In this document: positions 21,815 to 42,953 of the stretch, in pieces
How the letters are laid out: each line of letters begins with the position of its first letter
Position numbering within the stretch: position 1 is the stretch's first letter
NCBI RefSeq assembly: GCF_013315695.1
Contig: NZ_CP054353.1
Source of the DNA: Escherichia coli
GTDB lineage: Bacteria; Pseudomonadota; Gammaproteobacteria; Enterobacterales; Enterobacteriaceae
DNA: 64,000 nt
Direction: 5' to 3' (one strand)
Translations under genes and position numbers: made by a program
Notes under the pieces: generated by a model
Databases searched by the model: none
What the model saw: only the letters and a program-made list of their open reading frames with translations
What the model was told of the DNA's origin: nothing

Positions 21815-21829
21815 CAGAGGAACAAAATC

Positions 21830-22924: not shown

Positions 22925-22973
22925 CGCATCATGGCGGGCACATGCGCCCGCCGGTTAATCAGGAGTCGAACAC

Positions 22974-23783: not shown

Positions 23784-23891
23784 TAACACCGGACCCGACC
23801 TCGTCGGCAGGCGGCGCGACCGGTGATCTGATCGCTGACTCCCGGTCATTTTCACCAGTCGCCCACCGCCTGATCTACAGGAGAAGACACC

Positions 23892-24586: not shown

Positions 24587-24588
24587 TT

Positions 24589-25948: not shown

Positions 25949-25951
25949 ACG

Positions 25952-27889
25952 ATGAGCAAAAAACATTTTGAGTTGATTACCGCCATGAGCCGTACGGAGC
26001 TGGCTGAGAAAGTTAACGAACGTCTGGCGCTGGGCTGGCAGCTTCAGGGCGACGCACAGGTTGCGTCAGAGCCGGGCGTGCCGTGGTATTTGATGCAGGC
26101 CATGACCGGTGATCAGCCCGTCACCGACGAGCCGCAAATTGCTGTGGATGACGAAGGGAACACAATCAACGAACCGGAATACTACTTCGTCATTGCTCTG
26201 GCCGGGCAATCCAACGGCATGGCGTATGGCGAAGGTCTGCCGCTGCCTGAGACATACGATCGCCCCGATCAGCGCATTAAGCAACTGGCACGCCGCAGTA
26301 CTGTCACGCCGGGTGGTGCGTCCTGTAATTACAACGACATTATTCCTGCGGACCACTGCCTGCATGATGTTCAGGATTTGAGTAAGTTTTCACACCCGAA
26401 AGCCAGCGCAGCTCAGTATGGATGCGTGGGGCAGGGATTACATATCGCGAAGAAATTGTTGCCGTTTATTCCGGCGAATGCGGGCATTCTTCTGGTTCCG
26501 TGCTGTCGTGGTGGATCTGCGTTTACTACAGGGGGTGATGGCGCTTTCAGTGAAACAACCGGTGCAACAGAAGCATCGTCTCGTTGGGGGGTCGATAAAC
26601 CGTTATACAAGGATCTACTCACCCGAACAAAAGCCGCACTGAAAACCAACCCTAAAAACATTCTGCTTGCAGTGGTCTGGATGCAGGGCGAGTTTGACTT
26701 AAAACAAACAACGGCATATTCCAACCAGCCAGCGGCGTTTGATGCCATGGTGGCAAAATACCGCTCCGATCTGGCGGGCGTATCAGGTCAGTGCGTTGGT
26801 GGCTCTTCATCATCAGTACCCTGGATTTGTGGTGATACAACTTATTACTGGAAAGAGACATATCCAACCGAGTACGGTGTTGTCTATGGCGCATACAAAA
26901 ACAAGCAGGCTAAAAACATCTTCTTTGTGCCGTTTATGACGGATGAAAACGGTCAGAATGTTGGCACCAACGAGCCAGATGAAGATCCTGATATCACTGA
27001 AATCGACTATTACGGTTCTGGATGGCGCAAAGATAAAACCACATGGACAACGGCAGATCGTAAAACTCACTTTGGCTCATGGGCACGTCGGGGAATTATT
27101 TCAGATCGTCTTGCTACAGCAATAATTGAGCATGCAGGTAAAACGGAAGCACTTGTTTATGGCAGGGTAACGCTCAGTAAAGAGGAAGAGCGCCCGGAAG
27201 AGGAAGATGAACCCATTGTAAAACCCACAGCTGAACAGTCAGTTATACTTTACGACGCTAAAAATGCCTCAGATACCAATTTACAGGCGCTGAACTGGGA
27301 GTTGAAGGATGTCACCCCCTCTCTGATTCAGGAGGGAAGTAATAAGGCGTTGCGTCTTGAGAAAAGCAACAGTGCGAAACCATGGTCATTACTTCATAGT
27401 ATTGCAGCCGAAAAATCAGGACAACTTCTGGAAAAAGGCGGAGAAATTTCCGTTCGCTTCAAAATACCTGAAAACACCTCTCTTGATACAGGAAAAAATA
27501 AGTATGTGTTAGGGCTGTACTGGAAAATAGCGGGATGGCCAGGTGATGGCGGAGAAGGCTATCTGAGTTCTTTTCTTGTTCAGACAGATAAAGCAAACCT
27601 GGATGTTGTTTACCATTACAACAGTAATCAACTGAAAGATATTGGTACATTTGATGAGTTTGATCATGACTGGCATACGCTCGCATTCAGGTTTGAAGGC
27701 GGTAACAGCCTCAGCGTTACACCGGTGCTCGATGGTAAAGATGGTCAGGCGTTTGATCTTGTTAAGTGGACTAATTCAGCTAATGAGGCCAATAAGTTTA
27801 TTTTGACCGATATTACTGGCACAGCTGAAACGTATCCTGTCCTTATTGAGACAATCGAAGTTAAAGCAAACCAGGCAGCAGCGAAATAA
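25952..27889 (+). CDS. sialate O-acetylesterase, NanS-p-like (SGNH/SASA domain with C-terminal lectin-like region)
   Basis: 645 aa; GQSN block (ALAGQSNGMAYGEG); size and domain order match prophage NanS-p esterases as recalled; inserted between lysis and tail genes. Confidence 0.7.
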   Translation: MSKKHFELITAMSRTELAEKVNERLALGWQLQGDAQVASEPGVPWYLMQAMTGDQPVTDEPQIAVDDEGNTINEPEYYFVIALAGQSNGMAYGEGLPLPETYDRPDQRIKQLARRSTVTPGGASCNYNDIIPADHCLHDVQDLSKFSHPKASAAQYGCVGQGLHIAKKLLPFIPANAGILLVPCCRGGSAFTTGGDGAFSETTGATEASSRWGVDKPLYKDLLTRTKAALKTNPKNILLAVVWMQGEFDLKQTTAYSNQPAAFDAMVAKYRSDLAGVSGQCVGGSSSSVPWICGDTTYYWKETYPTEYGVVYGAYKNKQAKNIFFVPFMTDENGQNVGTNEPDEDPDITEIDYYGSGWRKDKTTWTTADRKTHFGSWARRGIISDRLATAIIEHAGKTEALVYGRVTLSKEEERPEEEDEPIVKPTAEQSVILYDAKNASDTNLQALNWELKDVTPSLIQEGSNKALRLEKSNSAKPWSLLHSIAAEKSGQLLEKGGEISVRFKIPENTSLDTGKNKYVLGLYWKIAGWPGDGGEGYLSSFLVQTDKANLDVVYHYNSNQLKDIGTFDEFDHDWHTLAFRFEGGNSLSVTPVLDGKDGQAFDLVKWTNSANEANKFILTDITGTAETYPVLIETIEVKANQAAAK

Positions 27890-27896
27890 TAAAAAA

Positions 27897-27919
27897 CCCC
27901 CTCCGGCATTCGGAGGGGG
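27897..27919. other. strong GC stem-loop (ccccctccg-gcatt-cggaggggg) after the esterase gene
   Basis: 9-bp stem; A-run on the 5' side, so the T-run is on the minus strand. Confidence 0.5.
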
Positions 27920-28189
27920 AGAGAAACTAACCATTAAAAACGAATATCTATAAGCATCTCAATTCTGGCGTTTTACACCATCACACGCAATGCAAAGGAG
28001 CAATGTATGAATTTATTTCAACAGTCCATGTTGTATTTCAGTGCTGCAGTATGCGTCATATGGGTGTGATAAGGCAGACAGAACTTCCGGAACAAAAAAC
28101 AAATAAGGCAGCAGTAAGAAAAGCAGCTGGCGGTACAACTAACCGATCCTGAAATAGCCTGCCATACACAACAAACAGACGGTGTTTTT

Positions 28190-28660
28190 ATGCTGAAAAT
28201 GAACTCATTACGCGAAGCACTGACCAGCAACTGCCGGTGGTGCAAAGCCAATCCGGAAAAATTCACGGTATTCACTGAGTCCGGAGGCATTGAGACCACC
28301 GCAGAAAGACCGTCATTTCTGTATCGCTACAACCTGGTCGTTTTCATCATGGATTTCACGGAAAGCATCGACAACATCATGCTGCCGGTAATGGCGTGGC
28401 TGTACCGCAACCAGCCTGACCTGCTGCTTAATCCGGAGAAGAACAAAAGCATTAAATTTTCGACGGCCATTAACGACGATGACAGCGCCGATATCCTGCT
28501 GGAAATCCCGGTATGGGAACGCGTGATTGTACGCCGCAACGATGACGGCACGGTAACGGCAGAGCATATCGGTGAGCCACCGATAAGCCGGGCACTGGAA
28601 GCATGGCGAGTGGTCTTTGAAGACATGACATGGAAAACCGCAGAAGAGGCCGGGGCATGA
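28190..28660 (+). CDS. tail completion protein, P2 gpR-like
   Basis: 156 aa; MLKMNSLREALT start resembles P2 R; P2 gene order. Confidence 0.8.
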   Translation: MLKMNSLREALTSNCRWCKANPEKFTVFTESGGIETTAERPSFLYRYNLVVFIMDFTESIDNIMLPVMAWLYRNQPDLLLNPEKNKSIKFSTAINDDDSADILLEIPVWERVIVRRNDDGTVTAEHIGEPPISRALEAWRVVFEDMTWKTAEEAGA

Positions 28661-29292
28661 GAGACGCTCACGAACTGGATGCCATCTTTCAGGATATTCT
28701 TTCCGGCCTGTCGGCTGCTGGCATTCAGCGCACAGCAATGAACGTGGGTAAGATTATCCGGCAGCAACAGGCCAGGCGCATCAGAAACCAGGTATCCCCG
28801 GAAGGCCAGCCCTGGGAGAAACGAAAACGCCGCATAATGCGTATACAAAAAGGCGTGAAGTTTATCTGGAAAGACGGACAGGTGAGAAACCTGAAAAACT
28901 GGAGCACATCCCGGGGACGGTTCGGGCAGAAAATTACCGGCTACGATACAGACACCGGGGGTATCCGGACGTTTTACAAAGCGGATATCGAAGATTACCT
29001 GGAAATTAACACTCTGCGTGTTGGCGCGAAAACAACTCGCCCTTCCCCCATGTTTGAAAAGCTGAGAACGCCGCGCTTCATGAAAATAACCCCGGCTCCT
29101 GACGGCGTAAGCGTTGGGTTTCAGGGGCGGGCCGCGCGTATTGCCAGGGTACATCAGTTCGGAGAAGTGAGCCTGGTATCACCCGGGAACGCCACGAAAT
29201 ACCCCGTGCGCGAGCTGCTGGGCCTGAACGGGAAAGACAAACAGCAAATCACAGAAACCGTGATAGCCGGACTGGGGAAAGCGACGAAATGA
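28657..29292 (+). CDS. tail completion protein, P2 gpS-like
   Basis: ATGA-coupled to R; size and order. Confidence 0.75.
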   Translation: MRDAHELDAIFQDILSGLSAAGIQRTAMNVGKIIRQQQARRIRNQVSPEGQPWEKRKRRIMRIQKGVKFIWKDGQVRNLKNWSTSRGRFGQKITGYDTDTGGIRTFYKADIEDYLEINTLRVGAKTTRPSPMFEKLRTPRFMKITPAPDGVSVGFQGRAARIARVHQFGEVSLVSPGNATKYPVRELLGLNGKDKQQITETVIAGLGKATK

Positions 29293-29870
29293 ACATCGAG
29301 CTTATGCGACTGCTGCACAACATTGTCCGCATTGGCGTGGTCACAGAAATCAACACCGACAACTGGGAGGTTCGCGTGCAGAGCGGCGGACTGACCACCA
29401 ACTGGATCAGATGGAACTGCGGGCGGGCCGGAAAATTCAGAATCTGGATCCCGCCATCACCGGGCGAACAGGTGCTTATCCTGTGCCCCGGCGGCAACCC
29501 GGAAACCGCCGTCAGCGCGGGTAGCCTGTACAGTAATGACAACCCACCGCCGGACTCGCTGGAAAACGAAATGGTCATCACCGCACCGGACGGTGCAGTG
29601 TTTCGCTATAACGCACAGGAAAGCGCGCTGACTGCAACAGGCATTAAAACCGCAACCATCACAGCGGAAACCCGCATCACGCTGGACACGCCAAGGGTGG
29701 AATGCACGCAGCACCTGAAGGCAAAAACATTCGAGCTGACCGAAGGCGGGAAGATGACCGGTAACATCACGCACACCGGAGGAAGCCTGACCTCCAACGG
29801 CATCACGGTACACAGCCACGTACACGGCGGAGTCAGAAGCGGCGGAGACACAAGCGGAGGTCCACAGTGA
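29289..29870 (+). CDS. baseplate spike/assembly protein, P2 gpV-like
   Basis: 193 aa; order and coupling. Confidence 0.8.
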   Translation: MNIELMRLLHNIVRIGVVTEINTDNWEVRVQSGGLTTNWIRWNCGRAGKFRIWIPPSPGEQVLILCPGGNPETAVSAGSLYSNDNPPPDSLENEMVITAPDGAVFRYNAQESALTATGIKTATITAETRITLDTPRVECTQHLKAKTFELTEGGKMTGNITHTGGSLTSNGITVHSHVHGGVRSGGDTSGGPQ

Positions 29871-30235
29871 GCATTGACTACACCGGCATGAATCCGCACG
29901 GCACGGGAACAATTTCAGGGCACGAACACCTGAAGAACGCCATCATGGACATCATCATGACACCTGTCGGAACACGCGTCATGAGACGGGACTATGGCAG
30001 CCTGGTTCCCGGACTCATCGACAGCCCGATGAATGATGTAACCCGCCTTCAGTGCATGAGTGCAGCTGTAATAGCAATCAGCCGCTGGGAGCCGCGCGTG
30101 GCCGTGAGCGCCGTTGATGTGGCATGGGATAAACAGGGGCGGGCCATGCTGTCCCTGAACTGCCTGATTGTAAACACCATGGAAAAACTGGAGTTTTCTG
30201 TAGAGATGGGAGGAAAGGCGGATGCCGGCCATTGA
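29867..30235 (+). CDS. baseplate wedge protein, P2 gpW-like (gp25 fold)
   Basis: 122 aa; order and coupling. Confidence 0.8.
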   Translation: MSIDYTGMNPHGTGTISGHEHLKNAIMDIIMTPVGTRVMRRDYGSLVPGLIDSPMNDVTRLQCMSAAVIAISRWEPRVAVSAVDVAWDKQGRAMLSLNCLIVNTMEKLEFSVEMGGKADAGH

Positions 30236-31118
30236 TTTATCTGAACTGCCAAAACCGAACGTTATCGAAACGCTGGATTACGAGGTGATACTGGCAGAAA
30301 CGAAAGCATTCATCACCGGTCTTTACCCGGCAGAAATGCAGGCAGCCGTCACTGCCGCAATGACGCTGGAATCAGAACCCCTGAACATTATTGCCCAGGG
30401 CATGGCTTTTCGTGAGCTCATTATTCGCCAGAGAATCAATGACGCCGCAGGTGCCGTTTTGCTGAGCCATGCGGTATCCACAGACCTGGATCATGTTGCC
30501 GCGAACCTGAACACCATTCGCCTTGTCACCACACCTGCAACAGATACCCGTGACGCCATCATGGAAAGTGATACCGCTCTGCGTCTTCGGGCACAGTCTG
30601 CCTTTGACGGACTGAGTGTTGCCGGACCGGCAGGTGCATATGAGTATTTTGCCCGAAGTGTGAGCGGAAGCATTGCCGATGTAAGGGCGACGAGCCCATC
30701 CCCCGCCCAGGTCACCGTGGCAGTATTGTCCACTGACGGCGACGGCAGAGCTTCCGAAGACTTGATCGAAAAAGTCAGAACCGCACTGAGCGCGGAGGAC
30801 GTCCGCCCGGTGGGAGACCGTCTTACCGTAAAGAGCGCTGAAATCATTAACTACCAAATCAACGCCAGACTCTATTTTTATCCGGGACCGGAATCAGAGC
30901 CGATACTGAATGCGGCAAAAAACAACCTGGAAGCCTGGATCAGGGAGCAAAGAAAGATAGGCCGTGACGTTGCGCTTTCGGCCATCATGGCGGTACTGCA
31001 TGTTCAGGGGGTTCAGCGGGTGGAGCTGATTGAGCCAAAGCAAAACATTACCGTCAGTGATGTGCAGTCAGCCTATTGCACGTCATTCAATGTAAGCACC
31101 GGGGGAACCAATGAATAA
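30222..31118 (+). CDS. baseplate protein, P2 gpJ-like
   Basis: 298 aa; order. Confidence 0.82.
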   Translation: MPAIDLSELPKPNVIETLDYEVILAETKAFITGLYPAEMQAAVTAAMTLESEPLNIIAQGMAFRELIIRQRINDAAGAVLLSHAVSTDLDHVAANLNTIRLVTTPATDTRDAIMESDTALRLRAQSAFDGLSVAGPAGAYEYFARSVSGSIADVRATSPSPAQVTVAVLSTDGDGRASEDLIEKVRTALSAEDVRPVGDRLTVKSAEIINYQINARLYFYPGPESEPILNAAKNNLEAWIREQRKIGRDVALSAIMAVLHVQGVQRVELIEPKQNITVSDVQSAYCTSFNVSTGGTNE

Positions 31119-31644
31119 GACATCATTGCTGCCCCCTTCCGCCACAGAATTCATACGCAAAGCAGAGCGTGGCGGTGAACGGTTAATGGCGCTGCCCGTC
31201 GGTATTCGCCATCTCTGGGATCCTGACTCATGCCCCGTGCAGCTGCTGCCTTATCTGGCATGGGCGTTGTCGGTTGACAGATGGGATCAGAACTGGCCGG
31301 AGGAAACCAAGCGGCAGGTCATTCGCGATTCATGGGATATTCACCGGCATAAAGGCACCATCAAAGCCATTCGCCGGGTTGTTGAGCCGTTTGGTTATGT
31401 GATCAGGGTAACCGAATGGTGGGAAACCAACGAAACACCAGGAACATTCCGGCTGGATATCGGCGTACTGGATATCGGGATCACCGAAGAGATGTACAGG
31501 GAAGTCGAACGCCTGGTGGCCGACGCGCGCCCGGTCAGTCGCCACCTGATCGGCCTGAACATCATTCAGGACGTACCGGGTTACATGTACACCGGCGGCA
31601 TCGCCTACGACGGCGACATCATTACAATTTATCCGGCAGAGTAG
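31111..31644 (+). CDS. baseplate protein, P2 gpI-like
   Basis: 177 aa; order. Confidence 0.8.
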   Translation: MNKTSLLPPSATEFIRKAERGGERLMALPVGIRHLWDPDSCPVQLLPYLAWALSVDRWDQNWPEETKRQVIRDSWDIHRHKGTIKAIRRVVEPFGYVIRVTEWWETNETPGTFRLDIGVLDIGITEEMYREVERLVADARPVSRHLIGLNIIQDVPGYMYTGGIAYDGDIITIYPAE

Positions 31645-31650
31645 AGCACT

Positions 31651-34632
31651 ATGAGCGTGAAATTTAAAACTGTGATCACTAAAAGCGGCGCAGCAAAAAT
31701 CGCCGCAGCGACCAGCGCATCAGGAAAAAAAGTCAACATCACGCACATGGCCGTTGGTGATGGTGACGGTAATTTACCTACCCCCTCCTCATCCCAGAAA
31801 AAACTTATTCGTGAGGTCTGGCGCGGCACACCAAATAAGGTCGTTCAGGACAGCAAAAAACCAAACCAGATTATTGCTGAGCTGGTCATCCCTCCTGATG
31901 CCGGTGGATTCTGGATGCGTGAAATTGGGTTGTTTGATGACTCGGGAACGCTGATCGCTGTTGCCAATATGGCCGAAAGCTACAAACCGCTGCTGTCTGA
32001 AGGTTCCGGCAGGGCGATGACATGCCGCATGGTTATTGTCATCAGCGATGTAAGCGCGGTGAAGGTGTCTGTGGACACCACGACGATTATGGCAACCCAG
32101 GATTACGTTGATGATAAAATCGCTGAGCATGAGCAGTCGCGCCGACATCCCGATGCCACCCTGACCCAGAAAGGCTTCACCCAACTGGACAGCTCGGTAA
32201 ACAGTAGCAGTGAGGCGAAAGCTGCAACACCAAAAGCAGTAAAAACACTGAACGATACAAAGGCCCCGCTGAACAGCCCTAAGCTGACCGGAACACCGAC
32301 TGCCCCCACGGCAGCAAAAGGGGTCAACAACACCCAGATAGCGACAACCGCTTACGTGATGGCAGCAATCGCTAATTTAGTGGACTCATCACCGGACGCC
32401 CTGAATACGCTGAACGAGCTGGCGCAGGCGCTGGGAGATGACCCAAACTTTTCTGCCACCATGACAAAGGCACTGGCCGGAAAGCAACCCCTTGACGCCA
32501 CGCTGACAGCAATAGCAGCACTGGCTACAGCAGCTGATAAACTGCCTTACTTCACCGGAAGCGACAAGGCAGCACTGACAGCGCTGACGAAAGTTGGCCG
32601 GGACATTCTCGGGAAGGCATCCGTCAGTGAGGTCATTACATACCTGGGCCTCACTAACACCATCACGCAGGCATCGGGCGCACTTCAGAAAGCACAGAAC
32701 GGTAAAGACATCCCGAATAAAGCAACTTTTCTGACGAACATTGGCGTTACCAGCCAGACATTCATGAAGCACAACGGAGAACTGCCCGAAGATGCGGACC
32801 TGAATACCTATGGCCCGGTTGCGGCAACACTGGGAACATGGGGAAAAGCCTCATCAACCAATGCAACGATCGCTAAAAATTTCCCGGAAGAGAGCGCTGT
32901 GGGGATACTGGAAGTCCTTACTGGCGGATCATTTAACGGAACGCAAAGGTACACCTGCCGCAGCGGGAATATTTATGTTCGGACCCTGACCGCCAGATGG
33001 AACGGTACAAACGGACCATGGGGAGTGTGGCGAAACGTACAGATGGCGACCAGGCCACTTAGCACAACCATTGATCTGAATACCCTGGGGAATGCAGGTG
33101 ATATCGGCATATGGAGGAACAGTAACGCCAGTATTGCTTCATTCACCAGAAACTACCCCGAAGAAGGCAATAATGCCCAGGGGATTCTCGAGCTTATGGA
33201 AGGGGGTGCGTATGGGCGAACCCAGCGCTACACGACCATTCTCGGGAACGTGTATATTCGCACCCTTACAACAACATGGGACGCGTCCGCGCCGAAATGG
33301 GGAGGGTGGCACAGAGTCGGACATCAGTCTGACGGGGCATATCGTGATGATGACCTGAACACCATGAAAACGCCGGGCATTTACAGTGTGACCAACAAGG
33401 CAAAAAACGGCCCCATGAAGAGCGGAAATGAAAATTTGCTGGGGATCCTTGAAGTCATAAGGCGACTGGATGGCAGAACCTTTGTGCAGCGTTACACCAC
33501 AGCCGGAACGGCGACACTGACCCGGGGGCGATCTTTTGAAAGAACCTTCAGCGGTGACGCCTGGACAGAATGGCGGGAAATCTATAACTCATTCAGTCTT
33601 GCCCAGAGTCTGGGGATGGGTCGTGCGGTAGCAAGACTATCCAGCCTGGACTGGCAGACCTACGACTTTGTACCTGGCAGTTTGATCACCGTTCGGCTGG
33701 ATGACATGACCAACATTCCTGACAGCATGGACTGGGGGGTTATCGATGGCAACATAATAAATATTGCCGTTGGCCCGAGTGAGGATTCAGGTTCTGGCAG
33801 GTCAGTAATGGTATGGCGCGGTACAGTAAGTAAAGCGAACTACCGTTTCTTTATGGCACGAATTGCCGGGAATCCGGGAAATCGCACGATCACAACAAGA
33901 CGAGTACCAATTATTGATGAAGCCCAGACGTGGGGGGCAAAACAGATATTCAGTTCTGGCCTTTCAGGTGAGTTATCCGGCAACGCATCAACTGCAACAA
34001 AACTTAAAACCGCTCGCAAGATTAACGGCGTTGCGTTTGATGGTTCGGCAAATATTGAAGCGTTTCCCCCCGGCGTTCCACTGCCGTGGCCATCAGATAC
34101 ACCACCTGCTGGCTATGCCATTATGCAGGGGCAAACCTTCGACAAGGCAAAATACCCGAAACTTGCCATTGCCTACCCGTCAGGAAAGCTTCCTGATATG
34201 CGGGGATGGACAATCAAGGGGAAACCCGCCAGCGGTCGGGCGGTATTATCGCAGGAGCAGGACGGTATTAAATCGCATACCCATACGGCCAGCGTGTCAA
34301 AGACCGATCTGGGTTCGAAAACGACCAGTTCATTTAATTATGGAACCAAAACAACCAGCACAGGCGGGAGACACGAGCATGATGTTCCGCTCAAGTATCA
34401 GAACGGTGGCGGTGTAAACTTTGACTGGCTGGACGGAGCATCAAACAGTGGTGTTATTGCATACGGTAAAGTACCTGCCGCCGGTGAACACACCCACACC
34501 GTGGCAATCGGGGAGCACACTCATACCGTCCCATTGGGATCACACGGGCACGGCGTGACCGTTAACGCCACAGGCAACACGGAAAACACCGTGAAAAACA
34601 TTGCGTTTAACTACATCGTGAGGCTTGCATAA
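31651..34632 (+). CDS. tail fiber protein, P2 gpH-like N-terminus with long divergent C-terminal domain
   Basis: 993 aa; N-terminus [23 protein letters not shown] resembles P2 H; C-terminal HxH repeats ([24 protein letters not shown]). Confidence 0.85.
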
Positions 34633-35378
34633 TGACCTTTACAATGGAAGACGAAGCCAGAATGCTTCACGTATTTCATATTCACCCGGAAACCAGCGAA
34701 CTGACTGGAGAAAGCGACGTATATATCCCACCGTATACCGGGTTGCCCGCAGGCTGTACGACGACCGAGCCGCCACATATCCCGGAAGGGTTCGTGGCGC
34801 TTTTTGATGACGTGCGCCAGCGCTGGGAGCTTGCAGAAGATCACCGGGGAAAAGTGGTGTGGAATACGGCATCCGGGGATGAGATCGCAATTACGGAAAT
34901 CGGACCGCTACCTGAAAATACAACAACGGCAGCCCCGTCAACAGCCGCAGACAAGTTTATTGATGGCGAGTGGAGAGAAGATCGCAGTCTGGCAATCAGC
35001 ATAAAAAATAACGAGATAAACGAATGGCGAAGCACCATGGAAGCCGCGAATTACGTTTTCACGTTCAATGGTCGTAGCTGGGATTACGGAAAAGAAACCC
35101 AGTCCCGGCTGGATCCATCAGTGACAGCCGCAAAGTCCGGGTTATTACCGGAGGGATTTTTCTGGACGGATGCCGATAACAACGATATCCCGGTTACCGC
35201 AGATGAATTGATCGCACTGAGCAATGCTGCATCTGCTGCAATGTTTACCAAGGGAATGGAAATACATATCCGGCAACGGGAAATGAAAAAAGCCATAGAG
35301 GAATTACAGGACCCCGGCGAAATCATGGCATACCCGGTGGGATGGAAAACAGATACCGGAGACGGTGCCGGTGAGTGA
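34632..35378 (+). CDS. tail fiber assembly chaperone (gpG/Tfa-like)
   Basis: 248 aa directly after and overlapping the fiber gene. Confidence 0.7.
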   Translation: MTFTMEDEARMLHVFHIHPETSELTGESDVYIPPYTGLPAGCTTTEPPHIPEGFVALFDDVRQRWELAEDHRGKVVWNTASGDEIAITEIGPLPENTTTAAPSTAADKFIDGEWREDRSLAISIKNNEINEWRSTMEAANYVFTFNGRSWDYGKETQSRLDPSVTAAKSGLLPEGFFWTDADNNDIPVTADELIALSNAASAAMFTKGMEIHIRQREMKKAIEELQDPGEIMAYPVGWKTDTGDGAGE

Positions 35379-35383
35379 AAGTT

Positions 35384-35408
35384 AAAACGCCCGACTGACG
35401 GGCGTTTT
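35384..35408. terminator. bidirectional terminator between convergent G and U (aaaacgcccg-actgac-gggcgtttt)
   Basis: Perfect 6-bp GC stem flanked by A-run and T-run. Confidence 0.7.
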
Positions 35409-35410
35409 AA

Positions 35411-35887
35411 TTATCTTACCAGCGCCAGCGCAGAACTGATGCCGGACTTAATATTATTTGTCAGATCTCCCAGAGATGAAGACTGAAGACGTTCGCGGAG
35501 ATCTTCATTCACACGCTGAAAGGTCACCGTAAACTCAATCTTCCGCGCCTTGCCATAGCGATCAAGCTCTGAACGCGTGGTATTCAGAGCGGTAATAACG
35601 TACATACCGTAAATCTGCCCGACACCATCAATCAGCGGCCATGGACGTCCAGCATACGCCTGAGTTGTCAGCGCGGTAAGTGAGACTTCACCGCCTGTAA
35701 TTTCCGGGTAGAGAAGACCGGAAAGCGTGATGGTATCGTCACCCGCGCCGATATACTGCCAGCTGGCCGAGCGATTGATTCGCTCATTCTTCACGTGGCG
35801 CCAGTTACGGGACTGCTGTATTTGTTGGTGTGGCAGCGTGCTTAACTGAAAAACAAACATGCCGTAAATCATCATCATAATCACCAC
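35411..35887 (-). CDS. tail protein, P2 gpU-like
   Basis: About 155 aa; last gene of the FI-FII-E-T-U order; exact start among several Met codons unresolved. Confidence 0.75.
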   Translation of the reverse strand: MVIMMMIYGMFVFQLSTLPHQQIQQSRNWRHVKNERINRSASWQYIGAGDDTITLSGLLYPEITGGEVSLTALTTQAYAGRPWPLIDGVGQIYGMYVITALNTTRSELDRYGKARKIEFTVTFQRVNEDLRERLQSSSLGDLTNNIKSGISSALALVR

Positions 35888-35889
35888 TC

Positions 35890-38748
35890 CTAATCACGAT
35901 CGCGGAAGCTGTTCATCCCGGCGGATTGTCTGCGAATTTCTTCCCGTACAGCCTCCCCCACCATTCTGGCAAGGTCGCGCGGGTTCTGCGTCGCCACGTT
36001 GTGAAGATGAACGTGGATTTCCCCACCGAACACAGACGACGGTTCAGGAGAGCGCGAAGCCTCCCGGGTAGCCGGGGAGACTGGCGCCCACTGCTTAACC
36101 TCCACGGAACGGGAAGCATCCCGGGAGACCTCCGGAGGCACAGGCGAAACCGGAGGCATAACCGGTAGTCCTGGCGCAACAGTCGGCTCATTCCACTGCC
36201 CGCGAACAGCCAGCGCACGGGGGAGGTTTTTAAACACGATATCGCCGGGACCGATACGCTTGCGGGCTTCATGAAGCATGCCCGACGTATTACCCTCGAT
36301 ACCTTTAAGCCTGCGAAGAACGGCGCTGTTACCGCTGGTTATGCCGGGGGGATTGCTGGTTTTACCGTCATTCTGTGGATTACCATTCCCGTTGTTATTA
36401 TTGCTGACAGGAGCGGCCGGAGTGGGTACCCAGGACTTCTGAACCATTTTTTTCTGAACAGGGTCCCACTCCCACATAACCGGAGCCTTTGCAACTGCCT
36501 CAGCACGATTTTTCGCCCGCTCAACTTCAGAAGGGAGCACGCCGAGTTTTTCCAGCACCCATGCCAGGCCGTCCATCAACGCCTGAAGAGGAGTAAGCGC
36601 AAGCGATATCGCCCCGCTGAGCACGCGACCAAAAGTTTCCCCGACCGAGGCACACCGTTCAAGAGATTCATGGCTGGTCTGAACAGGTGTGAGTAACCGC
36701 CTGAACCAGTCATACACCGTGGACACCGCACCCGATACCAGATCAAACAGCGGCGCAAACTGAGCAACACCTTCACGAACAGGCGCAAGGCCAGCCCACA
36801 GCGCCCGGAATGTTCCGAGCATAAAAGCCTTAACCTGTTCCCAGTGACGCCATATGAGCAGCGCTCCACCGGCAAGGGCAGCAACCACGAGACCAACAGG
36901 ACTGAGAAGACCGGCAAGCGCCCCGCCCAGCACTGAAACCGCACCGGATACCATCCCCCACAGTGCCGGAAGGCCAGACAGGCGAAGGGCAAGACCACCA
37001 ACGCCAGTTGCAACAGAGGAAAACCCGCCACCAAGAAGCGCAGAGCCAAGCTGAAGTTTTGCAAAAATACCGGTCAGCACCCCGGAGGTCAGGGACAACG
37101 CCCCAAGGGCTGTCGTGGCCGCAAGAACACCACCGGCAACAATCGCCAGAGTACGCACCAGTTGCGGATTATCCTGAACCCATCCTCTGAGCCGTTCACC
37201 CCATGATACCGCTACCTGAACAAGTTCGCGGAGGTCATCGGTGACAAGGGCAACGACATCACTGCGTATACCGGAGAAGACACCAGACAGGCGATCGGCA
37301 TCACCGCCAAGGTTATCCCGCAGAACATCACCCATACGCCGGGCGGTTCCCTGCACCTGCCCCATACGGTCAGACACCGTTGCCAGCGAGCGGAGAAAAT
37401 CCGGGATCTGATCAACGGCCAGATCTTCGATGGGTGTGCCGAACAGCGCTATCGCCGCATTGGCTCGTTCCGCAGGATCCTGAATCTTCAGCAGCCCGGC
37501 AGCCGTTCGCTGCATTGCCTCGCGAGCAGCCGCGCCTCCGCTGGCAATCGCTGACAACATTTTTTCCGCATTAAGGCCAATCAGCCCATAAGCCTCAACG
37601 CTTGCTTTGGACATATCCGAGCCACGAATACTGAATTCCTTGACGGCATCGCCGGTTTTATCCAGGGCGAATTTCCCCTGCTGCGCCATGCTGACAAGCA
37701 GCGTCATGGTTTCAGAGCCGGAGAGCCCCATATTGCGGAAATGCGTGGAATACTCATGCAGAATTTCAGGAAGTTCGCCGCGCATTTCGGCGGACATTTT
37801 CTGCATGCCTGCCGCCATCAGGTCCACGGCCTCACCTGCATTTGCAGCGAGACCGTTTTTCAGCATGATGCCGGCCGCCTGAACCTGTTCAGCCACATTA
37901 CCGCCGGTGACCTGAGCAAGATCGATTGCCTGCCGTGTCACCCTCTCTAGTTCTTCAGTCCCTACAGTACCCAGTGCGCCAAGCGTGCTTTGCGCCGCAG
38001 CTGCCGCTTCGGAAATCATCGCGATATCCGTAGCCGCACCTGACGCACGGATGTTCTGAATCATACGGCTGTAGCGCTGGCCGTCTTCTGCGCTGCCTCC
38101 ACTCTGTGCCGCAATGAGCGCACCCTGCCGTTGCTCTTCAACAACAGGTGCAACCGCACGTCCGGCGGCGTACAGACCAGCACTGCCCGCTGCCATGGCA
38201 AGCGCACCGCGCTGGCTGAGTTTACCGGCGATATCCTGAACACGATCGTAACGTTGTTGTGCCTGCGTGACGCGCGCAAGCTGAGCCTGCTGGCGCTCAA
38301 GCTGATCGTTGTATTCCTGCGTTCGCCTGATTGCTTCTTCAGTGGTGCGGTTACTTCCGTCCGCCCGTATACCGTGAGACTCCAGCTCACGACCGGCTTC
38401 CCGTAGCCGGGACTGGTGAAGGGCGTAAACGGTATTAAGACGCTCAATCTTTGCAGTCAGTGAGCGGATAGCTTCCTGCTGTTTTTCCGTCAGTGTCGTG
38501 CCAGTACGCTGGACCTCCAGGAGGCGCTGAAGTCGCCCACGCGCCTCGTTCAGGCTGTTTTCAGTCGAGGCAACCTGCTGACGGGCACGGGAAAACGCAT
38601 CACTGCTTCGCTGGAGTGACTTAAGAGCGTTCTGCGTGGAGGAAAGAGATTCGGAAAGCGCGCCGGTCATTTCCCGGGCGCGCCTGACGGGTTGGGTGAG
38701 ACGGTCGACCGCAGTGAGGGCTACACGTATCTGGAGATTATTACTCAT
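35890..38748 (-). CDS. tail tape measure protein, P2 gpT-like
   Basis: 952 aa from ATG (MSNNLQIRV); Ala/Gly-rich helical protein; ORF-track frame extends to 38802. Confidence 0.85.
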   Translation of the reverse strand: MSNNLQIRVALTAVDRLTQPVRRAREMTGALSESLSSTQNALKSLQRSSDAFSRARQQVASTENSLNEARGRLQRLLEVQRTGTTLTEKQQEAIRSLTAKIERLNTVYALHQSRLREAGRELESHGIRADGSNRTTEEAIRRTQEYNDQLERQQAQLARVTQAQQRYDRVQDIAGKLSQRGALAMAAGSAGLYAAGRAVAPVVEEQRQGALIAAQSGGSAEDGQRYSRMIQNIRASGAATDIAMISEAAAAAQSTLGALGTVGTEELERVTRQAIDLAQVTGGNVAEQVQAAGIMLKNGLAANAGEAVDLMAAGMQKMSAEMRGELPEILHEYSTHFRNMGLSGSETMTLLVSMAQQGKFALDKTGDAVKEFSIRGSDMSKASVEAYGLIGLNAEKMLSAIASGGAAAREAMQRTAAGLLKIQDPAERANAAIALFGTPIEDLAVDQIPDFLRSLATVSDRMGQVQGTARRMGDVLRDNLGGDADRLSGVFSGIRSDVVALVTDDLRELVQVAVSWGERLRGWVQDNPQLVRTLAIVAGGVLAATTALGALSLTSGVLTGIFAKLQLGSALLGGGFSSVATGVGGLALRLSGLPALWGMVSGAVSVLGGALAGLLSPVGLVVAALAGGALLIWRHWEQVKAFMLGTFRALWAGLAPVREGVAQFAPLFDLVSGAVSTVYDWFRRLLTPVQTSHESLERCASVGETFGRVLSGAISLALTPLQALMDGLAWVLEKLGVLPSEVERAKNRAEAVAKAPVMWEWDPVQKKMVQKSWVPTPAAPVSNNNNGNGNPQNDGKTSNPPGITSGNSAVLRRLKGIEGNTSGMLHEARKRIGPGDIVFKNLPRALAVRGQWNEPTVAPGLPVMPPVSPVPPEVSRDASRSVEVKQWAPVSPATREASRSPEPSSVFGGEIHVHLHNVATQNPRDLARMVGEAVREEIRRQSAGMNSFRDRD

Positions 38749-39288
38749 CGTTATGATTCCCGGATCTGGCAGCCGCCCGCTCTCGCCAGGCAACAACCTC
38801 ACCAGGACTCATACCGAATATCTCTGCGGGCGACCAGTTAAAGACAACAGCGATATCAGCGACAAGCTCTTCGATATCGTCAAACAGGAGACGAATTACA
38901 TCACACCTGTATTCGTCTTTTTCTTGCCGGGCAAGGCCTTCGGCGAGAAAAAATACGTTGCCGCCGTGGAAAGCGCCCCGAAATCCTCCGTGCGCATGGT
39001 CGACAGTTCCGCTTCAGTAAGGCGGGGCTCTGTAACACGGCTGAGATAAACGCACATCGCGTTAAAGTTCAGGCTGTACAGGTGAGCCAGAGACAGACCA
39101 CGCAGTGAACCACTCTGACGGGCACGTTCGCCAATCTTCACATGTGTAATAACCTGTTCACCACGGACAACCGGAACGGTTAACTCAATGGGCTCACCGT
39201 TATAGGCAACCTCATTACCATCAGCAACATCAAAGTTGTCGACGTTATCAGCACCGGCAACCAGTACTTCGTTTTGTTTTTTTGACAT
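38741..39288 (-). CDS. predicted E+E' -1 frameshift product of the tail chaperone
   Basis: The -1 frame from the TTTTTTC site (plus 38947-38953) stays open to a TAA that overlaps the tape-measure ATG (ATGAGTAA). Confidence 0.5.
38896..39288 (-). CDS. tail assembly chaperone, P2 gpE-like (frame 0 product)
   Basis: 130 aa; lies between tail tube and tape measure; contains slippery heptamer T TTT TTC. Confidence 0.7.
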   Translation of the reverse strand: MSKKQNEVLVAGADNVDNFDVADGNEVAYNGEPIELTVPVVRGEQVITHVKIGERARQSGSLRGLSLAHLYSLNFNAMCVYLSRVTEPRLTEAELSTMRTEDFGALSTAATYFFSPKALPGKKKTNTGVM

Positions 39289-39333
39289 TGTGAAATTCTC
39301 CTGGCGGCCACACGACCGCCGTCAGTCAGTTAA

Positions 39334-39846
39334 TCAGCCAAGTCCCAGCATGGAGCGGGTGCGATCAGGCAGCACATCCTTGCCATCAACGCGCCAGATG
39401 AAGTTCAGCACGTCGATTTCAATAACATCGCTGTTATCAACGCTGAGCTTGTACCAGGTGCATTTCATCGCGTAGGTGTGTTCGGTATCTTCACCCTGTT
39501 TGGCCTCGCCCTTGTCGATTTCGACAATGCGACCACGGGCTTCAATATCGACGTACTCAATCCCTTCTTCGGAATAGTATTCACCCGAGAAGCGCACGCG
39601 TACCGCATCAATGCCAGCGGCATATTTGGCAAAGATGTGACGATCCATACCGCCAACCGCAAAGGAGAGATCCAGCGCACCATCATCAAGACCGAGATCC
39701 ACCGCCGCAGAGCCTGGCATACCCGCACCACGATATGCTTCCGTCTTGCGGGTCAGTTTCGGTGGGGTGAAGGAGGTCACCTTACCCAGTTTGTTGTCAC
39801 CGTCCACAAAGACGGTAAACACACGAAGTTTTTTTGGTACGGCCAT
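39334..39846 (-). CDS. tail tube protein, P2 gpFII-like
   Basis: 170 aa directly after the sheath gene. Confidence 0.82.
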   Translation of the reverse strand: MAVPKKLRVFTVFVDGDNKLGKVTSFTPPKLTRKTEAYRGAGMPGSAAVDLGLDDGALDLSFAVGGMDRHIFAKYAAGIDAVRVRFSGEYYSEEGIEYVDIEARGRIVEIDKGEAKQGEDTEHTYAMKCTWYKLSVDNSDVIEIDVLNFIWRVDGKDVLPDRTRSMLGLG

Positions 39847-41039
39847 CAGCTACCTCCCAGAGATGCAAAAGCAGAGCCAAAGAACTCGTCGGTAAACGTC
39901 TGATAGAGTTCCATGCATTCCATCGGTGGTACGGGCGTGTATTTGTAGCGAATGCGCACAATGCCCTGACGAAGACTGGTCGTGTTGTTGTCGACAATAT
40001 CGAACCAGCATTCCGCCCCAATGAGTTTTCCGGCCGTGACCAGGGAATCCAGTTTCGCCTTGATGGCACTTACTGCATCTTTCGCATTGGAAGGTGTCAG
40101 AGGCGAATCCACCACCTGAAGCTGCGCCTCTGCGATACTGTCAGCCAGTTGTTGCGCCGTGCGGGTGTACACCTCAAAGATATACTCCGCTGTTTCCGGC
40201 GTACGGTTCCCCCAGAAACGGAAGGAGCCGTCACCCTGGTGAATAATCGTGGTCACCTCACTGCTGTTCAGCGTGTTGGCATCGCTGTTTTCATCCTGAA
40301 GCGACCAGGAAACCGACGCAGAGATCCCGAGAACATTCTTCACAGGGATGTTTGAAAGAGAGCGATGCCAGCCCTGTTCGTGGTCGATTCGGGCACGAAG
40401 ACCGCACGCATACGCCGCAGCCGGGAAAGTTTCACTTTTACCGGACACGGGGTTGAACGCCGTGAAATCAGGCCACAGGAGCATGATTTCACGCCCGGAA
40501 ATCTTTTTGCGGAATGCAATGGCATCGGACGGTTTTGTGCATGCCGGACAGCCGGAATACGCAAAAGCTCGCATTTTGCCCGCAATCGTCACCAGTGCCG
40601 CCGTAACGGCATCGGACTCAAGACCGGGCGCTGCCAGGATACGCGGACGACAGCCAATCCCCTCCATCTGTTCAGCGACCAGAAGGGCCTGCATCCCCGT
40701 GTAACTGCCATCAGACTCCACAGTACCAATAACAAGCTGGTCCTGTGTCTTCTGGTCTTCCGCCTCCTTCGCTTCGGCAACACGCACGACGATAACGCGC
40801 GTGCTGACCTGATCGGAGATAGCCTTAAGGGATTTGTAGAGCGTCCCCTTTGTGCCAGCCTTACCCAGAACATTATTGACTCGTGTTAACAGCACCGGCG
40901 TGTCAAGCGGGAACTGCTCTTCGTCAGCATCATCTGCAACAGCAATAAGCCCAATGACGCTGGAATCAACGTCATTAATTGCCGTCACCAGATCGGTGTT
41001 TTCCCTGACGCGCACACCGTGAAATCGTGTTTCAGCCAT
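39846..41039 (-). CDS. tail sheath protein, P2 gpFI-like
   Basis: 397 aa; similarity to recalled P2 FI (WPDF, GLRARIDHEQGWH, FRFWGNRT, YTRTAQ). Confidence 0.88.
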   Translation of the reverse strand: MAETRFHGVRVRENTDLVTAINDVDSSVIGLIAVADDADEEQFPLDTPVLLTRVNNVLGKAGTKGTLYKSLKAISDQVSTRVIVVRVAEAKEAEDQKTQDQLVIGTVESDGSYTGMQALLVAEQMEGIGCRPRILAAPGLESDAVTAALVTIAGKMRAFAYSGCPACTKPSDAIAFRKKISGREIMLLWPDFTAFNPVSGKSETFPAAAYACGLRARIDHEQGWHRSLSNIPVKNVLGISASVSWSLQDENSDANTLNSSEVTTIIHQGDGSFRFWGNRTPETAEYIFEVYTRTAQQLADSIAEAQLQVVDSPLTPSNAKDAVSAIKAKLDSLVTAGKLIGAECWFDIVDNNTTSLRQGIVRIRYKYTPVPPMECMELYQTFTDEFFGSAFASLGGS

Positions 41040-41114
41040 ACGATTCACCATCAGTTGTGTTTATGTTCGCCGGAATCATCCATGACTGGCGCGCAGATCT
41101 CACGCGTTGGGGGG

Positions 41115-41132
41115 TGTGAGGGGGTTCTTACA
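41115..41132. promoter_or_regulatory. Ogr-type late promoter element TGT-N12-ACA (tgtgagggggttcttaca)
   Basis: Dyad between divergent FI and D; shares GTTCTTACAAC with 20888-20905. Confidence 0.6.
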
Positions 41133-41191
41133 ACAGAACCGAACGGAAACGACCGGAACTGCGTGGGATGATACGTATACGGGAGGGCTGC

Positions 41192-42337
41192 ATGAACATC
41201 ACTGAATCACTGACACTTCACATCAACAGTGCACTGGATACCGCAGAAGACACAGTGCGGGTACCGGATTTCAGTATCACACTGGAAGGGCGGGATGCCA
41301 GCCTGAAAAACATCACGCAGCGCATCATGCGTCTCACCATGACAGACAACAGGGGATTTGAGGCCGACAGGGTGACACTGGAAATCGACGACGCTGACGG
41401 TGAGGTGGTTCTTCCGGAACGCGGCACCCGATTATCGCTGACCATGGGATGGAAAGGGGGAAGCCTGACAAACAAAGGGACGTTTGTTGTGGATGAAGTG
41501 GCGCACGACGGACCACCGGATAAGCTCACCATCTCCGCGAACAGCGCGGATTTTCGCGAAGAGTTTAACGTGAAACGCGAAGTCTCCTGGCATGACGTGA
41601 CGGTGGAGCGCGTGGTGTCTGCCATTGCCCACCGTTACGGACTGAAGGCACAAATCAGCGAGATGTTGATGGATATTGAAATCGACCATGCAGACCAGAC
41701 AGAGGAAAGTGATATGTCATTCCTCACTCGCATGGCCGACATGCTGGGTGCAATAGCCACCGTAAAAAACGGGTGTCTGCTGTTCATTCTGCCGGGAGGC
41801 GGCGTCACCGCCAGCGGTCGCGCCCTCCCCTCATTCGCCCTGACCCGCTCTGACGGAGACGGCCACCGCTTTCGCATTGCTGACAGAAACGCCTATACCG
41901 GAGTGAAGGCCCACTGGCTGGATTTAAAGTTCGGTCAGAAGAAGGCCGTGAACGTGAAAAAGCGAAACGCGCAAACCACGAAGAAGCCGGAGAAAAGCAG
42001 TGCGCGGGAAGGTGGTTACATGGAAGGCGCAGAGGGTAACGTGTATGTACTGAGAAAAACCTACCCGAACGAAGAAGCCGCGCGTCGTGCAGCTGCCGCA
42101 CGCTGGCAGCAACTTCAGCGGGGCGCAGCGGAATTCAGTATCACGCTGGCGCGCGGACGTGCTGACCTGTATCCGGAGATGCACGGCACGGTATCCGGAT
42201 TCAAGAGCGACATTGACAACCAGGACTGGATTATTTCGCGCATTGAGCACGTCATCGACGACAGCGGCTTCACCACCAGACTGGAGCTGGAAGCAAAAAT
42301 CGCAGACTGGATAGCAGAGAGTAACACGACTGGCTAG
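41192..42337 (+). CDS. tail protein / late control gene D, P2 gpD-like
   Basis: 381 aa from ATG with GGGAGGG RBS; adjacent to ogr. Confidence 0.82.
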   Translation: MNITESLTLHINSALDTAEDTVRVPDFSITLEGRDASLKNITQRIMRLTMTDNRGFEADRVTLEIDDADGEVVLPERGTRLSLTMGWKGGSLTNKGTFVVDEVAHDGPPDKLTISANSADFREEFNVKREVSWHDVTVERVVSAIAHRYGLKAQISEMLMDIEIDHADQTEESDMSFLTRMADMLGAIATVKNGCLLFILPGGGVTASGRALPSFALTRSDGDGHRFRIADRNAYTGVKAHWLDLKFGQKKAVNVKKRNAQTTKKPEKSSAREGGYMEGAEGNVYVLRKTYPNEEAARRAAAARWQQLQRGAAEFSITLARGRADLYPEMHGTVSGFKSDIDNQDWIISRIEHVIDDSGFTTRLELEAKIADWIAESNTTG

Positions 42338-42378
42338 AATGAGCGCGAGCCCACCCCGTTTCAGCCAGGGGGACCATC

Positions 42379-42681
42379 ATGCATCCTTGCCCATACTGCG
42401 GAGCAAGCACCCGCACCAGAACAAGCCGCAACGCCAACGACACAGGAACAATCAGGGAGAAATACTATCAGTGCAACAACATTGAATGCAGCGCAACCTT
42501 TGTGACGCACGAGTTTGTCGTGAGAACCGTATGCCGTCCGCAACCCACCGAAGAACGGGGAATCATCCCCACAGACGCTTTCAAATCATGCCACCGGGGA
42601 AGGGAACAACTCAGCCTCCCCCTGGGCGATTGCTCCTCCCAGTCAAAAACTGTACATTACGCGCGGGTGCCTTTCGGCTGA
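42379..42681 (+). CDS. ogr: late transcription activator Ogr (zinc finger)
   Basis: MHPCPYCGAS...YYQCNNIECSATF: CxxC-N22-CxxxxC motif; N-terminal 70 aa resemble P2 Ogr as recalled. Confidence 0.8.
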   Translation: MHPCPYCGASTRTRTSRNANDTGTIREKYYQCNNIECSATFVTHEFVVRTVCRPQPTEERGIIPTDAFKSCHRGREQLSLPLGDCSSQSKTVHYARVPFG

Positions 42682-42812
42682 CGGCTGGAAGGATTACCTG
42701 AAGGCCGGATGTGGAAAGGCCCCGAGTCAAACATATTGTTTAACCCGAGGCCCTAACCATCCAACCGTGACAAGTGGAAGGTTAGCGCCTCTTTGAAAAA
42801 GGAGCAAGCGCT

Positions 42813-42953
42813 ATGCCGCAAAAAACGATCATCGTGAGCATTTTATGCTTAACCATGTTGTTGACCGTCTGGATGATACACCGTTCGCCGTGTGAATTCA
42901 GACTTAACATCATGTGGTCAGAATTTGCGGCGTTCTTGCAGTGTAAACCGTAA
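42813..42953 (+). CDS. Hok/Gef-family type I toxin peptide, HokA-like (46 aa)
   Basis: Below ORF-track cutoff; AAGGAG RBS; MPQKTIIVSILCLTMLLTVWMIHRSPCEFRLNIMWSEFAAFLQCKP resembles E. coli HokA as recalled (MPQK..., WMI, LCE, AAFL.CK). Confidence 0.65.
   Translation: MPQKTIIVSILCLTMLLTVWMIHRSPCEFRLNIMWSEFAAFLQCKP

Follow-up and report, generated by a model that had tools for sequence, protein, structure and literature searches.

The P2-like prophage of E. coli MSB1_4I very probably makes use of programmed -1 ribosomal frameshifting, as known from E/E+E' of phage P2. The 64,000-nucleotide stretch of DNA analyzed here (the window) holds this prophage in complete form with its tail genes intact, and its minus strand carries an E-like gene of 130 aa (39288..38896, from the ORF list and translation) with the in-phase slippery heptamer T TTT TTC. 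From the sequence, we infer the occurrence and efficiency of the shift, the production of the fusion protein and the chaperone role in the MSB1_4I prophage.

Organization and homology of the E/E' pair

The pair has the tail tube gene (PF04985) on one side and the tape-measure gene (PF10145) on the other, all on the same strand, in agreement with RefSeq. The features discussed below are as follows.

35890..38748, minus strand: tape measure protein gene (T-like), 952 aa; PF10145 PhageMin_Tail, 62.5 bits; RefSeq 'phage tail tape measure protein'
38741..38748, minus strand: ATGAGTAA, in which the tape-measure start codon overlaps the E+E' stop codon (from the sequence)
38741..38947, minus strand: E', the predicted -1 extension of 68 codons plus TAA, beginning at the re-read C 38947 and encoding the GpE domain
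38741..39288, minus strand: predicted E+E' fusion, 182 aa, junction ...ATYFF/LAEGLAR...
38896..38946, minus strand: dual-coding overlap from the shift site to the E stop, 17 frame-0 codons (SPKALPGKKKTNTGVM, then stop)
38896..39288, minus strand: E-like gene, putative frame-0 tail assembly chaperone, 130 aa; ATG 39288, stop TAA 38898..38896
38916..38919, minus strand: second shift-prone tetramer A_AAG, in phase, overlapping the A-run 38922..38918
38947..38953, minus strand: predicted site of the -1 shift, the heptamer T TTT TTC (slippery, X XXY YYZ phase)
39334..39846, minus strand: tail tube gene (FII-like), 170 aa, directly upstream of E; PF04985 Phage_tube, 167 bits; RefSeq
39846..41051, minus strand: tail sheath gene (FI-like), 401 aa; PF04984, PF22671 and PF17482

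Relative to frame 0 of E, the heptamer is phased as taT TTT TTC, which fits X XXY YYZ. From stop to stop, the open -1 frame extends from 39013 to 38741 (90 sense codons), of which 21 codons already lie upstream of the heptamer. It ends at a TAA (38743..38741) within the octamer ATGAGTAA, which also contains the tape-measure ATG (38748..38746) and is common to P2, L002, BIS20 and the closest relatives. A sequence-only reading of this DNA had placed T TTT TTC in the E-like gene, followed by a -1 frame open for about 68 codons and closed by a TAA overlapping the tape-measure start. All of this was recovered, with the heptamer in phase at 38953..38947 and exactly 68 sense codons after the slip, and the proposed span of 38741-39288 is exactly that of E+E'. 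The same reading regarded the arrangement as positively checking the annotation of the tail module, and it does serve that purpose.

Both parts of the predicted fusion have homologs. E' matches PF06528 Phage_P2_GpE in Pfam (55.2 bits, E = 4.7e-15, for a cutoff of 23) and phrog_1756 in PHROG (5.7e-24), and E matches phrog_103 'tail protein' (PHROG, 1.6e-29). By BLASTP, the 182-aa fusion is 38% identical to the E+E' protein of phage P2 (E = 4e-31) in an alignment that is unbroken across the junction, which places the heptamer at the position of the experimentally defined TTTTTTG of P2. The frame-0 part is itself homologous to P2 gpE, with fusion residues 34-114 aligned to P2 residues 7-86. The N-terminal part reached 16.7 bits with PF10109 Phage_TAC_7 in Pfam, below the cutoff of 25 and only when the fusion was the query, and NCBIfam returned no match for E, E' or the fusion. 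As a result, E is labeled 'hypothetical protein' in RefSeq (WP_016236124.1). The homology of E seen in the pairwise and PHROG comparisons is compatible with the PF10109 miss.

Predicted shift and its position

Under the frameshift reading, most ribosomes would remain in frame 0 up to the stop at 38896 and produce the 130-aa E. In a minority, the tRNA-Phe on UUU (P site) and the tRNA-Phe on UUC (A site) would both slip back by one base onto UUU UUU, a movement on U UUU UUC (38953..38947) that would leave both tRNAs cognately paired. The shifted ribosomes would continue in the -1 frame for 68 codons, up to the TAA overlapping the tape-measure ATG. Their product would be the 182-aa E+E', sharing its N-terminus with E and having a C-terminal GpE domain. 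The junction tryptic peptide expected from a shift at T TTT TTC is TEDFGALSTAATYFFLAEGLAR, and TEDFGALSTAATYFFSPK is a peptide of frame-0 E. In PMC4066793, the motif U_UU.U_UU.C is one of those that shift efficiently in E. coli, at more than 0.1% without stimulators. If lambda G/GT and P2 E/E+E' are a guide, the two proteins would be made in a fixed ratio and serve as chaperones of tail assembly, coating the tape measure protein, recruiting tube subunits and not being part of the finished virion.

The exact position of the shift would not be fixed uniquely by the sequence, with a second in-phase tetramer present in the overlap. Ribosomes could shift wholly or partly at A_AAG (within AAG AAA AAG, 38924..38916), and the product would then read ...SPKALPGKK/KDEYRC... 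Neither frame is closed at this tetramer, no tetramer shifts more readily in E. coli than A_AA.G (PMC4066793), and a variant of natural or assembly origin that has an additional A at this place codes directly for a 182-aa fusion. Against it, lone tetramers are barely shifty in the absence of a strong pseudoknot (PMC4066793), and no spacer separates the motif from the sole nearby hairpin. The motif is also confined to the closest relatives, whereas the position of the T-run is conserved back to P2, and the -1 residues LAEGLA between the heptamer and A_AAG align with VAELGA of P2 E+E'. We consider a contribution from A_AAG unlikely and retain T TTT TTC as the probable shift site.

We also searched for stimulators of the shift. 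Foldings of 51, 60 and 94 nt past the heptamer revealed no structure at a distance of 5-9 nt, and the proximal hairpin is weak (z = -0.5). A stronger hairpin (38918..38889, z = -3.2) lies 28 nt past the heptamer and spans the E stop codon. It was rejected as a conserved stimulator, being too distant for a canonical one and broken in L007 (84% identical); it is also missing in a further seven relatives, where z lies between -0.85 and +1.2. Upstream, direct reading for a Shine-Dalgarno-like stimulator found just an unconvincing GGCGG. P2 is likewise described as having no downstream stimulatory structure (PMC3091744). There is a slim chance that this allele differs functionally from that of P2, in that U UUU UUC (of the efficient class and cognate after the slip, unlike U UUU UUG of P2), the A_AAG located 25 nt downstream and the window-specific hairpin may together yield a different, possibly higher or two-site, E:E+E' ratio, or that free E' may arise through stop/start coupling at TAATT.

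Conservation of the layout and other explanations

The E/E' configuration goes beyond chance. As a control, we examined the 40 non-overlapping long ORFs of the window, which offer 16,181 in-phase positions. None of the 65 in-phase heptamers found in the other long ORFs was associated with a -1 frame that both stays open for at least 60 codons and passes the frame-0 stop. We then compared 53 distinct E..E' sequences, comprising the window (L001), L002-L004 and loci from IMG/VR. In 48 of these, the GpE ORF lies in the -1 frame and the overlap contains an in-phase slippery heptamer. Five loci (L009, L010, L011, L064 and L076) were considered as having a different architecture; this was rejected, the departures being indels elsewhere in E or E'. 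The layout is also kept in five distant Peduoviridae, with TTTTTTT, GGGAAAG, CCCTTTC or TTTTTTG as heptamers. In Peduoviridae, the heptamer thus varies by lineage at one conserved position (TTTTTTG/C/T, AAATTTT, CCCTTTC, GGGAAAG), and the nucleotides flanking it are highly divergent among related E..E' sequences. The strict X XXY YYZ phase is kept among relatives. Changing heptamers at one conserved position support tRNA slippage as the mechanism, which is conceptually nothing new.

These data bear on the RefSeq gene model, in which E' is a separate CDS starting at ATT. Accordingly, E' would be an independent 51-aa GpE gene starting at ATT 38896..38894 and translated by termination-reinitiation at TAATT, with no frameshift. 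The CDS WP_032149167.1 ('GpE family phage tail protein') covers exactly that span, the 51-aa protein appears by name in numerous NCBI records, and an AGGTG is found 7 nt upstream of the ATT. However, ATT is very rare as a start codon. The -1 ORF has no ATG, GTG or TTG ahead of the GpE domain, with 67 codons preceding an internal ATG that would leave just 23 aa, so E' cannot be conventionally translated alone. The call is driven by homology and 48-aa versions also exist (P0012), indicating that the annotated start is arbitrary. Moreover, the 21 open codons upstream of the heptamer are followed by a -1 frame that aligns with P2 E+E' through the junction, and the P2 product is an E+E' fusion according to the P2 record and PMC3091744. 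Independent initiation needs no heptamer, yet in-phase heptamers are kept across divergent relatives. Separate translation of E' is therefore very unlikely as an explanation of the pair.

A fusion could also be produced at the RNA level if the polymerase stuttered on T6, with an extra U in some transcripts that would then be translated normally into E+E'. The site is indeed a homopolymer of six T, and an extra homopolymer base does give an in-frame fusion at the DNA level in the A6 variant L091. Appreciable slippage by the E. coli RNA polymerase usually needs runs of about 8-9 or more, and a run of six is shorter. The non-homopolymeric heptamers of relatives (GGGAAAG, CCCTTTC, AAATTTT) fit tandem tRNA slippage instead, and the conserved X XXY YYZ phase speaks against stuttering as well. 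We regard polymerase stuttering as highly improbable.

Lastly, the pattern could be a non-functional relic or a coincidence with no second product, a notion to which the indels in E or E' at some related loci lend some support. But the prophage is complete, its tail genes are intact, the GpE domain is intact at 55 bits, and the configuration is unique in the window and widely conserved, leaving this reading with a negligible probability. Ribosomal frameshifting on T TTT TTC remains the preferred explanation for the E/E' pair.

Comparison with related phages and public annotation

The sequence-only reading had likened the region to the E/E' arrangement of P2, and the gene order, PF06528, the alignment through the junction, the matching P2 site and the conservation in relatives all agree with it. 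According to PMC3091744 (citing Christie 2002 and Xu 2004), P2 shifts by -1 at TTTTTTG to make E+E' (142 aa) in addition to E (91 aa); both P2 proteins are reported to be required for tail assembly, and the P2 record NC_001895 annotates E+E' as a -1 frameshift. Within the FETUD tail operon of P2 (Christie et al. 2002, through PMC3091744), E and E+E' are likewise flanked by FII (tube) and T (tape measure). Both phages have a heptamer built on T6 close to the 3' end of E, an E' with the PF06528 GpE domain, and an E+E' that ends in ATGAGTAA, overlapping the T start. The P2 site reads ggT TTT TTG TCG CCG AA compared to taT TTT TTC TCG CCG AA in the MSB1_4I prophage, so that TCGCCGAA follows the heptamer in both (TTTTTTG in P2, TTTTTTC in the MSB1_4I prophage). 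The A-site tRNA would be Phe in the MSB1_4I prophage (T TTT TTC), cognate after the slip, whereas it is Leu in P2 (T TTT TTG). The proteins also differ in length: E has 130 aa in the MSB1_4I prophage, with an N-terminal extension of about 33 aa, versus 91 aa in P2; 17 frame-0 codons follow the site versus 6; and the predicted E+E' has 182 aa versus 142. D and ogr follow U in P2, while in the MSB1_4I prophage they are divergent from FI-FII-E-T-U.

The P88-like or Xuanwuvirus-type E. coli prophages and phages (P88, Chuche, PhiR44_2 and the IMG/VR loci L012-L084) have fusions that are 42-63% identical to that of the MSB1_4I prophage. They match its layout, with hok, ogr and D divergent from sheath-tube-E-E'-T and the same -1 architecture. 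They differ in having two overlapping heptamers, A AAT TTT TTG, or in some cases only A AAT TTT, and TGA closes their E', with no ATGAGTAA overlap. Compared to these phages, the MSB1_4I prophage has a divergent allele of E: a 1.3-kb query around E is covered to 80% or more in just one of the 5426 complete E. coli genomes.

In the lambda G/GT class of long-tailed dsDNA phages, two overlapping ORFs are located between the major tail and tape-measure genes (PMC5009743, PMC3091744), joined by a -1 or other programmed shift at a slippery site; shifting by -1 at low level, toward the end of the first ORF, yields a fusion sharing its N-terminus (PMC5009743). The two products are presumed to act as a chaperone pair at a fixed ratio (PMC5009743; Xu, Hendrix and Duda 2004; Levin et al. 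1993). E/E' shows this type of layout, with overlapping ORFs joined at a slippery site between the major tail and tape-measure genes. The proposed parallel with lambda G/GT holds for mechanism and gene position or order only; lambda is a siphovirus and its heptamer is G GGA AAG, as opposed to T TTT TTC in the MSB1_4I prophage.

The 'hypothetical protein' label and the 51-aa ATT gene model are also found on hundreds of other contigs. The exact 182-aa fusion is missing from a collection of 15 billion proteins, which indicates that no source annotates E+E' as a fusion; the one 182-aa cluster member is the A6 homopolymer variant L091 and not an annotated frameshift product. The P2-type E/E+E' frameshift is already well known, and the case in the MSB1_4I prophage is real but ordinary, having been missed by public annotation. 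Its main value lies in correcting that annotation: the frameshift restores the gene model and confirms that the tail module of this prophage is intact.

The probable frameshift site and its prophage

The window is 100% identical to the chromosome of E. coli MSB1_4I (NZ_LR898874.1) and takes in a P2-like prophage, complete and about 38 kb long (roughly window 4771..42953), which is flanked by dmsA and serS and has integrase, replication endonuclease, portal, terminase, capsid, lysis, baseplate, fibre and tail genes. The D, ogr and hok/gef toxin genes diverge from the sheath-tube-E-T-U operon, a layout common to P88-like (Xuanwuvirus-type) phages, whereas P2 has the order FETUD-ogr.

Features around the E/E' site
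39846..41051, minus strand: tail sheath gene, flanking
39334..39846, minus strand: tail tube gene (PF04985)
39288..38896, minus strand: E-like ORF, 130 aa, ATG at 39288 with AGGAG ahead of it, TAA at 38898..38896
39013 to TAA 38743..38741, minus strand: open -1 frame, 90 sense codons
38953..38947, minus strand: slippery heptamer T TTT TTC in codons ...ACG TAT TTT TTC TCG CCG..., exact X XXY YYZ phase
38748, minus strand: tape-measure start ATG within the octamer ATGAGTAA, opening a 952-aa protein
35890..38748, minus strand: tape measure gene (PF10145)

The sequence-only reading had proposed the slippery heptamer T TTT TTC in the E-like gene, about 68 open -1 codons after it and a TAA overlapping the tape-measure start. 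Its coordinates and its heptamer proved correct, on the minus strand; 68 codons were counted, and the terminal TAA lies inside the octamer that also holds the tape-measure ATG. A slip on the heptamer would yield a product of 182 aa, joined at ...ATYFF|LAEGLAR.... A second in-phase heptamer, A AAA AAA, occupies codons 2-4 of the E-like gene (39277..39283, minus strand; ATG TCA AAA AAA CAA). A -1 slip there would terminate after about 12 codons, and this heptamer may be incidental or slightly lower the yield of E.

Other prophage regions also drew our attention. A 645-aa DUF6645 protein gene, possibly cargo (a moron), lies on the plus strand (25952..27889; record 1898846..1900783), with the lysis cassette on one side and the tail-completion genes on the other. 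The Rz1-like lysC (25757..25948) is flagged by RefSeq as an incomplete pseudogene and is embedded in an adjoining 'hypothetical' gene, likely LysB/Rz; the flag may reflect an overlapping-gene annotation problem, not real decay. Accessory genes in the early region (9541..9747 and 9744..10724; record 1916011..1917194) code for a DNA adenine methylase and, next to it, a ParE-family toxin-like protein together with a 3'-5' exonuclease.

Coding evidence and homology to P2

The -1 extension matched Pfam PF06528 (Phage_P2_GpE; 55.2 bits against a gathering score of 23, E = 4.7e-15) and phrog_1756 (5.7e-24), and the -1 frame is therefore coding. We surveyed chance occurrence in 40 non-overlapping window ORFs of at least 150 aa (16,181 in-phase positions), which contained 65 in-phase X XXY YYZ heptamers (0.4% per codon). 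Of these, a single heptamer, deep within its own gene, had at least 60 open -1 codons after it, and for none of the 65 did the -1 frame run beyond the frame-0 stop.

In the P2 record (NC_001895), E (91 aa) and E+E' (142 aa, two joined pieces) are annotated with a '-1 frameshift'. The P2 site reads ggT TTT TTG TCG CCG AAC... and that of the window taT TTT TTC TCG CCG AAG..., so the heptamers differ in their last base; E is longer in the window, at 130 aa. The predicted fusion aligned with P2 E+E' by BLASTP (38% identity, E = 4e-31), and a single alignment spans the junction (TYFFLAEGLA against VVGFLVAELGA), making the predicted shift site positionally homologous to the established P2 site. In both phages ATGAGTAA ends E+E' at the start of T. 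The proposed P2 E/E' arrangement is thus borne out by the site, the octamer, the GpE domain and the alignment across the junction. Judged from sequence, the pair belongs to the P2 E/E+E' family by every tested feature except the N-terminal Pfam and NCBIfam thresholds. Tail chaperone frameshifts have been known since 1993 in lambda and 2002 in P2 and are routinely recognised; the window site is a further instance of the familiar P2 type.

Heptamer turnover and mechanism

A tblastn search with the fusion found 383 phage records, and the match was in two pieces (two frames) in all but 2 of the 60 records listed. We then compared 80 IMG/VR loci, the window and three relatives, together 53 distinct E..E' sequences, 48 of which had a GpE ORF in the -1 frame and, within the overlap, a slippery heptamer in phase. 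In the other five (L009, L010, L011, L064, L076), single-base indels within E or E' upset the normal 0/-1 relation (in L064 and L076, for example, an A-run is where KKMASRDF turns into KKWHPV); the probable cause is homopolymer error in draft assemblies or prophage decay. The three nearest relatives (84-94% identity) have TTTTTTC; TTTTTTG occurs in the relative L002, the P88-like group and P2. P88-like relatives (L013-L084, e.g., L025 1812..1821) have overlapping in-phase A AAT TTT and T TTT TTG (gtA AAT TTT TTG), while L012 (1791..1797), L009 and L011 retain A AAT TTT alone, evidence that the slippery site changes while its position stays the same. Bases flanking the T-run can hardly be aligned from group to group, yet the run and its phase are kept. 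Five distant Peduoviridae share the window layout, with legitimate heptamers at the equivalent position.

Heptamers in distant Peduoviridae (phage, host genus: heptamer)
Smp131, Stenotrophomonas: TTTTTTT
RSA1, Ralstonia: TTTTTTG
BIS20, Salmonella: TTTTTTG
Kp4846-1, Klebsiella: CCCTTTC
535AP1, Mannheimia: GGGAAAG

Such wide conservation, together with the intact GpE domain and the complete prophage, contradicts a relic without function. Transcriptional slippage on the T6 run would also yield a fusion, but the run is short and the heptamer turns over among relatives, making this unlikely; the non-homopolymeric heptamers favour tandem tRNA slippage over polymerase stuttering. When UUU fills the P site and UUC the A site, the two tRNA-Phe molecules can each move back by one base onto UUU UUU and stay cognately paired. 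H_HH.U_UU.Y motifs are among the most efficient in E. coli, and U_UU.U_UU.C is listed with heptamers shifting at >0.1% without any stimulator, whereas the P2 motif U_UU.U_UU.G is listed as efficient in eukaryotic systems and not in E. coli (Sharma et al., 2014; PMC4066793). By these listings, the C variant is at least as competent as the P2 heptamer.

No canonical stimulator was found at the window site, and folding of the 51 nt that follow the heptamer was no more stable than that of shuffled sequences (z = -0.5). A locally stable RNA hairpin (38918..38889, minus strand; GACGAAUACA...UGUAAUUCGUC; 60-nt fold z = -3.2) begins 28 nt past the heptamer and spans the E stop with AGGUG exposed in its loop. 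In L007 (84% identical) this hairpin is disrupted, and seven other relatives, P2 among them, have nothing like it. For P2, PMC3091744 describes a shift at TTTTTTG with no RNA structure downstream, on the authority of Christie et al. (2002) and of Xu et al. (2004).

Within the E/E' overlap, the A5 run at 38922..38918 forms an in-phase A_AAG tetramer (AAG AAA AAG, 38924..38916). A shift there is possible as a minor contribution, but the motif is not kept beyond the closest relatives, and the residues from T TTT TTC to A_AAG align with P2 E+E'. The Logan assembly SRR32915726 (L091, about 666-672) has A6 at this run, giving a direct 182-aa E/E' ORF (...PGKKK|DEYRC...); the extra A is a homopolymer error or else marks a mutant whose sole product would be the fusion. 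T TTT TTC is very probably a genuine programmed -1 frameshift site. By analogy with P2 and with lambda G/GT (PMC5009743), to which the likeness is one of mechanism and gene order, E and E+E' would be tail assembly chaperones that work, at a set ratio to each other, on the tape measure protein.

Public annotation of E and E'

RefSeq names the E-like product 'hypothetical protein' (WP_016236124.1), a label found on 320 contigs, because its N-terminal part falls below the Pfam cutoff (16.7 bits against 25) and has no NCBIfam match. E' is entered there as a CDS of its own, a 51-aa 'GpE family phage tail protein' (WP_032149167.1, 38741..38896, minus strand), with a 48-aa version in other sources. 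In the RefSeq model the first codon of E' is ATT at 38896, which shares a base with the end of the E stop. Such independent initiation is unlikely, as the GpE domain has no ATG, GTG or TTG before it in the -1 ORF (the earliest is an ATG leaving only 23 residues), which makes a conventional separate gene implausible. The label and the split records alike are an annotation artefact of the unmodelled frameshift. The main interest of this site lies there: public annotation wrongly splits a frameshift pair, and the sequence of the predicted fusion is absent from protein databases.
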